Assembly (NCBI GenBank): GCA_023920165.1
Contig: CP089279.1
Location: 620,001-684,000 of the forward strand
Direction of reading: 5' to 3'
DNA: 64,000 nt
Source of the DNA: Curvularia clavata
Lineage: Eukaryota
The first letter of the stretch is position 1. Each line of letters begins with the position of its first letter. Both the position numbers and the translations under genes were made by a program. The notes below the pieces were generated by a model. That model made no database searches. It was not told the origin of the DNA and was given only the letters and a program-made list of their open reading frames with translations. Positions 6,147 through 7,422 of the stretch are shown here, in pieces.

Positions 6147-6286
6147 GCCAAGGACCATTTGGTCTGTCAGAGACTCAAGTTTCCCACTCGGAAGCAGTCA
6201 ACTGAGCTCCATATCTGTAGGCATCTTCCTCACGCGAACCTCTGAAAAGAGATACACTGGAGGTGGGGATACGCGAACGTTCCCTG
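6147..6286 (-). repeat. Structured repeat module copy 1 (140 nt)
   Basis: Plus-strand consensus GCCAWGGACC-N4-GGTCTGTCAGAG..CTC..GGCATCTTCC..CTGAAAAG..ACTG..GGGGA..TCCCTG. Confidence 0.9.
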
Positions 6287-6636
6287 CTCCGATCGTCTGA
6301 CTTCAACGGCGGACGACTCGACAGCGTGTGCCGGACCAGACCCAAACTTTTCTTTTGAAAGCAAAAGAAGGTGTACCCGATTGCTGGGCTTACCTGGAAA
6401 TCAACGCCAAAAGCACAAAGAAGCATGCGTACCTGAACAAGCGGGCGTGCCCTGACGGGCGTACCCGGAAGCGGACGTATCCCTGGGAAAGAGGCGGACC
6501 TCAACGGGCGTACCCGGAGTAATCAGCATATCCTTAGAAGACGGCGTACCCCAACGGGTTAGGAGGAGGAAGGGTCGAATCGAACAAGAGTCAACAACCT
6601 CGGGGATGGGTGTCCGAGTTTACCCGCAAGCAAAGT

Positions 6637-6756
6637 GCCATGGACCATAAGGTCTGTCAGAGACTTCCTAAGAAGCTCCACATCGCAGGCATCTTCCATG
6701 CTCATCTTCCTGAAAAGGATGATACTGATGGCGGGGATAAGGCGAGCCTTTCCCTG
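6637..6756 (-). repeat. Structured repeat module copy 2 (120 nt)
   Basis: Same conserved blocks in the same order as copy 1. Confidence 0.9.
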
Positions 6757-7063
6757 ACAAGACGGGTTCCTACGGACAACCATCAATGGAGCCGCATACA
6801 AGTTGTCATTCTTGGTACCAGTGACGAAGTGGGTGTGTACACGACCCCGAGTGCGCAAACAACTCGTGCGCCGACATGGGTTCCAGCGTTGACGGAATGT
6901 ACGTTGACCGGGTCTCCGGCGCGCCGAGCTCGTCGTAAATCATTCGTCCAAGATTCTTCGAACGTACGAACCCATATGGTTTGGTCTGGGGATTTTCCAG
7001 GTCAACGCGGTACATTGAGTATCATATTCAGCCTTGGAGGGTGAGCGTTGACAGCCAGAGAAC

Positions 7064-7263
7064 GCCATGGACCCAATGGTCTGTCTGAGCCTTTCGAAAA
7101 AGGACTCAATACCTCAGGCATCTTCCACACTCGCTGTCTGAAAAGACAGCACTGGTGGCGGGAGAAAACCCCCTTTGACTGGCAAGCTGCTGCACCTTCC
7201 AGCTTCGCACTCCTTGTGGAGTCCTGTCAATCCGGCAACGGCAATCGACGCTTCGTGTCCCTG
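7064..7263 (-). repeat. Structured repeat module copy 3 (200 nt, long insert in the last hairpin)
   Basis: Same blocks; contains the perfect hairpin GCTGTCT-GAAA-AGACAGC. Confidence 0.88.
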
Positions 7264-7309
7264 GTGGGCTCTGCCTGTACAAGGGAGAGGCATCCTCGCA
7301 CGACAATAG

Positions 7310-7422
7310 GCCAAGGACCGAAAGGCCTGTCAGAGCACGAAGCTCCACACCTGTTGGCATCTTCCACACGCGACGACCTGAAAAGGTGACACTGGTGGCG
7401 GGGCTGCGTTGAACGCTCCCTG
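7310..7422 (-). repeat. Structured repeat module copy 4 (113 nt)
   Basis: Same blocks with minimal hairpins. Confidence 0.9.

Follow-up and report, generated by a model that had tools for sequence, protein, structure and literature searches.

A tandem array of structured RNA modules ahead of a predicted HDV-like ribozyme in a transcript of the fungus Curvularia clavata

Introduction

Where paralogous structured RNAs stand in tandem in a eukaryotic genome, they usually form clusters of small-RNA genes, such as those of small nucleolar RNAs (snoRNAs) and microRNAs (miRNAs). A row of structured elements can also act within a messenger RNA (mRNA): the iron-responsive elements (IREs) of the transferrin-receptor 3' untranslated region (UTR), hairpins of ~30 nucleotides (nt), are docking sites for one protein that sets the fate of the RNA. 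The hammerhead ribozyme is a three-way junction with the core strands CUGAUGA and GAAA and a cleavage-site H, and a multi-helix junction with invariant unpaired bases and a varying periphery is the usual signature of an aptamer. The subject of this report is an array of four diverged RNA modules in a stretch of 64,000 nt from the fungus Curvularia clavata (GenBank assembly GCA_023920165.1, contig CP089279.1, positions 620,001 to 684,000 of the forward strand), referred to here as the window, whose numbering is used throughout unless another locus is named. The modules are an old, selected and autonomous fold, transcribed from the minus strand and joined in some RNAs to an upstream WD40-repeat gene, and an HDV-like (hepatitis delta virus-like) ribozyme stands at the end of the RNA.

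New complex RNA folds that are supported by covariation are rare in eukaryotes, and the module combines two junctions with a conserved core. It persists as one to five tandem paralogues across several fungal lineages, and it is tied to an HDV-like ribozyme that apparently forms the 3' end of a cellular RNA polymerase II (Pol II) transcript in vivo; we know of few natural cases in which such a ribozyme does so. The covariance model and alignment on which this work is based make the class searchable in fungal genomes.

Four modules in a single array

The array was delimited with a covariance model (R1) of 123 positions and 35 base pairs, whose source was a MAFFT alignment (A3) of 24 diverse module copies with hand-drawn pairs, and which was run against the window and against all 25 of the metagenome loci described below. 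In the window, R1 yields exactly four full-length matches, all on the minus strand, with scores of 93-127 bits and E-values of 4e-21 to 2e-29. The fifth-best score over 5900-8300, with filters off, is 6.8 bits, and under the same settings no decayed fifth module was detected between copies 4 and 3. Listed in the order in which the RNA carries them, the cores are module 4 (7308..7424; 100.1 bits, E 7.8e-23), which matches the full model length (1-123) with hairpins P1 and P2, the linker AAGAU and a three-way junction of helices Pc, P3 and P4; module 3 (7062..7177; 93.2 bits, E 3.8e-21), whose P1 is a short hairpin that also forms locally in the minimum free energy (MFE) structure; module 2 (6635..6758; 127.3 bits, E 1.6e-29); and module 1 (6145..6288; 110.8 bits, E 1.9e-25), whose P3 arm is longer by ~25 nt.

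The four matches bear out a preliminary description of the window, made from its letters alone, which had reported four diverged modules with shared, ordered blocks. Copy 3, which it had drawn at 7064-7263, occupies 7062-7177, and the long-range GGGA..TCCC stem that it had placed there around a 90-nt insert must be given up in favor of the short local P1, GGGGG-UUUU-CUCCC, which is present in the orthologues as well.

The shared blocks of the four modules are real and not a product of chance. The sequence GGAAGATGCC has four exact occurrences in the 64 kb of the window, all on the minus strand and only at 6220, 6688, 7117 and 7356; when up to one mismatch is allowed there are 15 matches, where 5.3 are expected, and none of 100 shuffled sequences reaches that number. 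A second block, CTCTGACAGACC, is found with up to one mismatch at the same four sites. The possibility that the array is coding sequence was considered and rejected, the open reading frames (ORFs) that cross it being devoid of any Pfam family.

The stretches between the modules have features of their own. The spacer between modules 2 and 1 carries, at 6442-6551 on the minus strand, five clustered copies of the 11-nt motif GGGUACGCCCG with 0-2 mismatches, and is partly conserved in locus L002. A contig of run X10, from a relative, appears to join 7160 to 7272 and to skip the 111 nt that separate them in the stretch between modules 4 and 3.

Fold, covariation and strand

Along the minus strand, from 5' to 3', a module comprises the dinucleotide CA, the variable hairpin P1 (GGGR...YCCC), the dinucleotide CG, the hairpin P2, whose outer part (CCAC/GUGG) covaries, the linker AAGAU, and the helix Pc, which encloses the three-way junction. 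Pc is a helix of 3 base pairs (bp), GCC/GGC, that covaries to ACC/GGU. Within it, the chain runs through the strand NNCNGAUAU, the hairpin P3 (GAG/CUC plus a variable arm), the strand YGAYA, the hairpin P4 (GRCC-N4-GGYC, with a conserved 4-bp stem and a free loop) and the strand CWU, the lengths of the three junction strands being ~8, 5 and 3 nt, respectively. Nearly all of the invariant bases lie in the junction strands AAGAU, GAUAU, YGAYAG and CWU and in the pairs that close them. Conservation is thereby concentrated in the 3' domain; the peripheral helices vary freely, and the hairpin loops are not conserved between orthologues. The covarying pairs CCTC/GAGG, CCAT/ATGG and CCAC/GTGG that had been noticed in the window, together with those around GAAA, turn out to be the outer and inner parts of P2. 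The GAAA loop itself (UUUC in the RNA), which had been called invariant, is so only among the four copies of the window; its sequence differs among relatives, and one subtype of the module lacks it.

Compensatory changes back every helix, on alignments fitted to the covariance model and on plain MAFFT alignments, as is to be expected of the functional structured RNA domain, repeated in tandem, that had been proposed from the letters. In the model-fitted alignment (A4) of 50 distinct copies, 91.8% of the cells are paired, as compared to 36.8-48.5% when the partners are slid by 1-3 columns; both sides have changed in 31 of the 35 pairs, with 258 such cells as opposed to 40-58 in the slid and 70 in the shuffled controls, and 0 of 500 shuffles reach the observed value. 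The plain MAFFT alignment A3 gives 89.4% paired cells and changes on both sides in 24 of the 35 pairs, again with 0 of 500 shuffles at this level. RNAalifold, applied to a third MAFFT alignment of 37 sequences, independently recovered P2, Pc, P3 and P4, with 10 of its 14 pairs compensated, and in an unguided ranking by mutual information the top nine column pairs are all pairs of the model. The same mutual-information scan shows no covarying pairs beyond the model that would indicate a pseudoknot. In the model pairs, G-U combinations outnumber A-C combinations by 134 to 16, from which it follows that the RNA is the minus strand, the reading that had been adopted initially.

The modules are larger than their first description allowed, since the flanks of each core form a long closing stem (P0) that had been missed. 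In module 4 the unit with its closing stem spans 7264..7469 (minus strand): flanks of ~45 nt pair with each other (-43.3 kcal/mol by RNAduplex for the module's own flanks), and the stem is present in the MFE structure of 7264-7470. The approximate whole units of modules 3, 2 and 1, on the same strand, are 7020-7217, 6596-6804 and 6104-6337. Among 48 distinct modules, duplexes between a module's own flanks average -29.5 kcal/mol, compared with -22.6 for mismatched partners and -22.4 for shuffled sequences (Mann-Whitney p ~2e-7). P0 comprises 30-45 nt per strand in every module, and its complementary segments differ in sequence between module families. With flanks of ~45 nt that pair, each module is therefore a closed 'lollipop' of ~200 nt. 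The overall fold is thus a long imperfect stem, P0, that leads to a four-way junction of P0, P1, P2 and Pc, with Pc leading in turn to the three-way junction with P3 and P4. This structure is well supported. Just upstream of the closing stem of module 4, at 7452-7483, lies a near-perfect palindromic hairpin of 32 nt, GCCCGCACAUCACUCGCGAGUGACGUGCGGGC, which has a weak, chance-level match to an miRNA family.

Homologues, age and distribution

A degenerate pattern derived from the module's 3' half was used to seek homologues in metagenome contigs of the Joint Genome Institute (JGI). The scan identified 25 contigs, cited here by L numbers, that carry 1-5 modules each. The same pattern gave 0 matches in IMG/VR, a virus dataset of the kind in which the preliminary description had suggested looking, and 0 in 596 Gb of prokaryote genomes, and the 25 matches are hence homologues rather than chance occurrences. 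Over these loci and the window together, R1 gives 78 full-length matches. In many contigs the modules form arrays, with up to five members at a spacing of ~270-530 nt. Every copy in the window has its own orthologue in other contigs, which means that the paralogues are older than the species split, and there is an additional fifth family that the window lacks. The four modules are therefore ancient paralogues of a single RNA domain, which is autonomous and folds independently. Two subtypes can be distinguished, one like the modules of the window, with an elaborate P2, and a second with a plain P2; the 3' domain is the same in both.

Complementary sequences that flank each unit, and single modules that stand in other contexts (L024 and L020), are also what would be expected of relics of a mobile element with inverted-repeat ends, akin to a miniature inverted-repeat transposable element (MITE) or a short interspersed element (SINE), that was amplified locally and has no function of its own. 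Such an element is marked by many dispersed copies with terminal repeats of conserved sequence. The stems, however, covary and keep their pairing through different sequences, with no terminal-repeat sequence kept; the copies are old and orthologous between species at one syntenic place, and only four matches, all in the array, exist within 64 kb. Such an origin is therefore highly improbable.

Two of the loci have neighbors that may be recorded here. In L024, a 517-aa ORF (3095-4645, in the sense orientation of the module) lies downstream of the single module, with a sequence that we take to be reminiscent of fungal HET domains. In L021, a transfer RNA (tRNA) gene (415-499, minus strand; Rfam, 53.3 bits) is found 1.3 kb upstream of a two-module array.

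The predicted ribozyme at the end of the RNA

Approximately 240 nt past module 1, at 5801..5906 on the minus strand, lies a predicted HDV-like self-cleaving ribozyme, which the preliminary description had overlooked. The surrounding stretch (~5950-5798) is 84-87% identical in L013 and L021, and is more conserved than either the modules or the coding sequence (CDS). Against the Rfam model RF00094, the window sequence 5907-5798 aligns over the full length of the model but weakly (14.8 bits, E 5.8, below the gathering score of 50). In L020, three sites match HDV-family models with 36.2, 33.9 and 31 bits (cut-offs 44, 37 and 50, respectively; E 3e-4 to 0.1), and one of them is the homologue of the conserved stretch of the window. 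These three ribozymes (1907-1986, 2189-2268 and 3133-3224, plus strand) lie within 1.3 kb, and one module (2441-2556) is placed between the second and the third; an L020 RNA that was cut on both sides of this module would have 5'-OH and 2',3'-cyclic phosphate ends.

The element at 5801-5906 has helices P1, P3 and P4 in the order of the HDV family, with P2 closing the pseudoknot. P1 has 6-7 bp in all six copies, formed by differing sequences (UGGGCGG/CCGCCUG, CGGGAGA/UCUCCUG, CGGGAAG/CUUCCUG, CGGCGGG/CCCGCCG and others); a script located P2 in three copies, and inspection by eye in the remaining three. The family combines a nested double pseudoknot of P1-P4 with the L3 core CCUCNNCGNGG, a sequence that all six copies contain and that occurs once in the window (5868-5880), outside the modules, on none of which an HDV-family match was found; the modules are thus not HDV-like ribozymes themselves. 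A C is present in J4/2 of the ribozyme in a register that differs from that of the model, and the combination of a gathering-level score with a catalytic C in the model's position was not found. P1 opens with a C-G pair, replaced by U-G in the window, and tandem A.G/G.A pairs lie at the foot of P4. Both features fit the fungal HDV variant that is described in the available text of Li & Breaker 2017 (PMC5640933).

Cleavage is predicted at the 5' edge of P1 (5907|5906 or 5906|5905), and the 3' ends of RNA contigs from several organisms speak for this position indirectly. Among 21 contigs with a true sense 3' end, nine stop 0-7 nt from the predicted cleavage site, and L013 reads through. The contigs of runs X9 and X10 likewise stop, at 5908. 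The ribozyme thus appears to make the 3' end of the array-bearing RNA in vivo. A ribozyme or a cleavage-site end is found 240-512 nt past the last module in the window, L001/17/23, L005/13, L018, L004/8, L009, L014 and L021. Since this arrangement recurs in at least eight distinct lineages, in both subtypes, array and ribozyme behave as one unit.

Directly upstream of the cut lies a conserved hairpin, GAUCA...UGAUC (5919..5947, minus strand), followed by GCAAGAGGAGGA at 5907-5918. It is present in the MFE structure, and alignment A5 shows its stem preserved through changes on either side in eight relatives. At a distance of 13 nt from the cleavage position, it could serve to insulate the ribozyme or to shield the 3' end that cleavage creates. 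Protection could also be sought in the modules, whose junction folds would then be nuclease roadblocks or stability elements that shield a ribozyme-cut, non-polyadenylated RNA from exonucleases, in the manner of the exonuclease-resistant RNAs (xrRNAs) and dumbbells of flaviviruses. A three-way junction, duplicated in tandem in the 3' region of a transcript whose contigs end without poly(A), together with the hairpin so close to the cut, is in keeping with this idea. The modules, however, are not at the end but 240-1500 nt from it, no flavivirus xrRNA or dumbbell family is among the Rfam matches at E<=10, and the mutual-information scan revealed no extra pairs for a ring-forming pseudoknot, all of which makes a roadblock function improbable.

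Beyond the ribozyme, the sequence GUAAGU (5786-5791, minus strand; GUGAGU in L021) is found 8-15 nt past its end in the window, L013 and L021, and resembles a conserved 5' splice site. A contig of run X11 diverges from the window at 5790 and continues with letters that the window lacks, which could reflect splicing or, equally, a diverged intron. No conserved coding sequence was detected downstream of the ribozyme by tblastx.

The host transcript

The array lies in the downstream transcribed region of a WD40-repeat gene on the same strand, the 3' part of which occupies 8242..9400 (minus strand; Pfam WD40), with the stop codon at 8242-8244 and a 56-nt intron at 9172-9227. Orthologues of the gene, unnamed proteins of ~378 aa, occur in genera of the Pleosporales, among them Pyrenophora, Alternaria and Bipolaris, and assign the window to this order of the Dothideomycetes; the gene precedes the array in five contigs. 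Three of the metagenome contigs (L017, L019 and L023) lack the intron at 9172-9227, and are hence derived from spliced RNA; they extend from the WD40 CDS across all of the array. Transcription, which had been named as a check on the first description, is further documented by X9, the one run on record as RNA, with contigs of at least 99% identity over 5908-6385, 6426-6773, 6763-6991 and 7141-7567, and with a contig that shows the spliced joint 9171^9228 in the WD40 gene. X9 has no contigs over 4000-5900, which is not evidence of absence. A poly(A) tail on L019 was considered and dismissed, because the same run of A is encoded internally in orthologous contigs. Farther downstream, an intronless 413-aa ORF (2781-4022, minus strand) without a Pfam family has relatives among unnamed, Pleosporales-confined proteins, with 58-60% identity to Bipolaris.

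Within RNA contigs the modules are intact, and contig ends do not cluster at them. This bears on whether the modules are themselves a new self-cleaving or otherwise catalytic RNA, an idea that their complexity and conserved junction bases would fit, as would their place beside a known ribozyme class and the three HDV-like ribozymes around a single module in L020. The contigs, however, cross the modules without ending there, while the same data break at the HDV-like site, and no ribozyme family matches the modules, so that catalysis by the modules is quite improbable.

A polycistronic precursor of new small, stable RNAs is a more serious candidate, although we still think it rather unlikely. 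Here a nuclease, of the RNase III type or other, would excise the modules at their basal stems to form small ribonucleoproteins (RNPs) that act in trans, and the ribozyme would trim the 3' end. The arrangement as such speaks for it, given what tandem arrays of structured RNAs usually are in eukaryotes, as do the closing stem of 30-45 nt per strand on every module, a copy number that varies from 1 to 5, and a ribozyme to process the precursor. It is opposed by long RNA contigs that span all modules uncut, by the lack of box C/D or H/ACA motifs on inspection by eye, and by loops that are not conserved between orthologues and thus offer no obvious guide region.

Relation to known RNA classes

The modules were compared with the described families by several routes, and the preliminary impression that they match none has held up. 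The 4227 models of Rfam 15 give 0 matches at gathering scores over the whole window; when the threshold is relaxed to E<=10 over 5500-8000, only four chance-level matches appear, none of them on a module. ARAGORN finds 0 tRNA or tRNA-like genes in the window. The hammerhead also has no Rfam match at E<=10 over 5500-8000, and the junction strands of the module are NNCNGAUAU, YGAYA and CWU. As regards snoRNAs, a box C/D RNA has box C (RUGAUGA) close to its 5' end and box D (CUGA) close to its 3' end, with a terminal stem joining them, and no RUGAUGA is seen by eye near the 5' end of any module; a box H/ACA RNA is built of a hairpin, an H box (ANANNA), a second hairpin and an ACA that lies 3 nt from its 3' end, and here, also judged by eye, the linker AAGAUG misfits ANANNA, and the ACA in GACAG precedes a conserved hairpin and a helix strand. 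We rate the modules, which have no Rfam match, as a new class, and the ribozyme beside them as a member of a known one.

Two further candidates for the region were tried and set aside. For a snoRNA cluster, a SNORD112-like match at 5718-5805 (19 bits, E 2.4) overlaps only the 3' tail of the ribozyme and continues over GUAAGU, and the modules have no boxes. For telomerase RNA, in fungi a long noncoding RNA with a 5' splice site at its end, no match to a telomere template exists in or near the array.

In its general features, namely a multi-helix junction, invariant unpaired bases and freely varying peripheral helices, the module does resemble an aptamer, and an array of ligand-sensing aptamers could provide cooperative sensing as a second eukaryotic riboswitch class. 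We know of no precedent, however, for four to five aptamers in tandem. No expression platform is apparent in the sequence and no metabolic gene is nearby, the neighbors being the WD40 gene and the unnamed 413-aa ORF, and fungi are known for one riboswitch class only, that of thiamine pyrophosphate (TPP), as stated in the text of PMC8216456 that was accessible. Ligand sensing is thus very doubtful.

A possible array of docking domains

The reading that we tentatively prefer, with a confidence somewhat below even, is that the modules form a new class of RNP-docking domains, each autonomous, set in a row on a transcript that a ribozyme terminates, the core docking a protein and the array providing multivalency. 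The modules would be read from the minus strand within a long Pol II transcript whose start lies inside the WD40 gene or behind it, and the HDV-like ribozyme would end this transcript instead of, or in addition to, a poly(A) site. The conserved three-way-junction core could be the docking site for a protein, with the variable arms and the long stem serving only to present and insulate it. One to five tandem copies would then confer multivalency, and the RNA might act as an RNP scaffold or sponge; alternatively, the bound factor may decide what becomes of an RNA without the usual poly(A) terminus.

Several observations weigh against this assignment. No partner protein is known, and a fold with two junctions and ~25 near-invariant bases has a complexity to be expected of an aptamer or a ribozyme rather than of an ordinary protein site. 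The contigs are blind to small processed RNAs, so that action in cis and excision cannot be separated with them. The alignments on which covariation was scored are both biased toward structure, A4 because it was fitted to the model and A3 because its structure was drawn from the same sequences. The thermodynamic z-scores of the cores are unremarkable (-0.99, -1.42, +0.20 and -1.65), those with flanks (-1.61 and -1.56) are not significant alone, and the case for structure therefore rests on covariation. Over the 1.8 kb upstream of the two-module array of L021, a distant relative, there is no WD40 gene, which indicates that the tie to this gene is not universal. Finally, run X11 has a depth of 2-3 over the array as compared to 60-100 over the WD40 part, contig depths being a poor measure, and most of the WD40 mRNA may end before the array.

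A broader formulation would make the module the central part of a novel class of eukaryotic RNA that has its own activity and is conserved across Dothideomycete fungi: a second riboswitch aptamer, a ribozyme of a new kind, or the RNA component of a new small RNP, freed from a precursor that ends at an HDV-like ribozyme. This is a possibility to be kept in mind, albeit on balance an unlikely one.

Comparison with known systems

In the literature searches, no description of such an array came up. In their available text, to which the supplements may add, Li & Breaker 2017 (PMC5640933) and Gao, Jones & Rivas 2021 (PMC8216456) do not use the terms tandem, WD40, Pleosporales or Dothideomycetes. The conserved structures of fungal UTRs and intergenic regions treated in these two papers, as far as their text was available, resemble the modules in being covariation-supported RNAs without an assigned function, some of them in 3' UTRs; those of Gao, Jones & Rivas 2021 are, in the accessible part of that paper, predominantly present in a single copy per genome, unlike the tandem modules. 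With the fungal HDV variant, as it is presented in the available text of PMC5640933, the likeness lies in the nested layout of P1-P4 and in the position predicted for cleavage, at the 5' edge; it concerns 5801-5906, and none of it is shared by the modules.

The polycistronic snoRNA clusters of fungi and plants offer a parallel in gene organization: their tandem paralogous structured RNAs share a Pol II transcript and frequently lie within a host gene or downstream of it. The modules differ from them in having no C/D or H/ACA boxes and a different fold. The xrRNA and dumbbell duplications of flavivirus 3' UTRs are likewise tandem three-way-junction folds of diverged sequence and conserved structure, whereas the modules match no such Rfam family at E<=10, give no pseudoknot signal, and belong to a cellular fungal transcript. 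The tandem IREs of the transferrin-receptor 3' UTR, lastly, share with the array the principle of repeating a structured element in a row within an mRNA's 3' region. The modules, by contrast, measure 115-145 nt and carry two multi-helix junctions atop a long stem, and their transcript ends at a ribozyme; within these limits, the tandem IREs may serve as a working analogy for the way in which the array acts.

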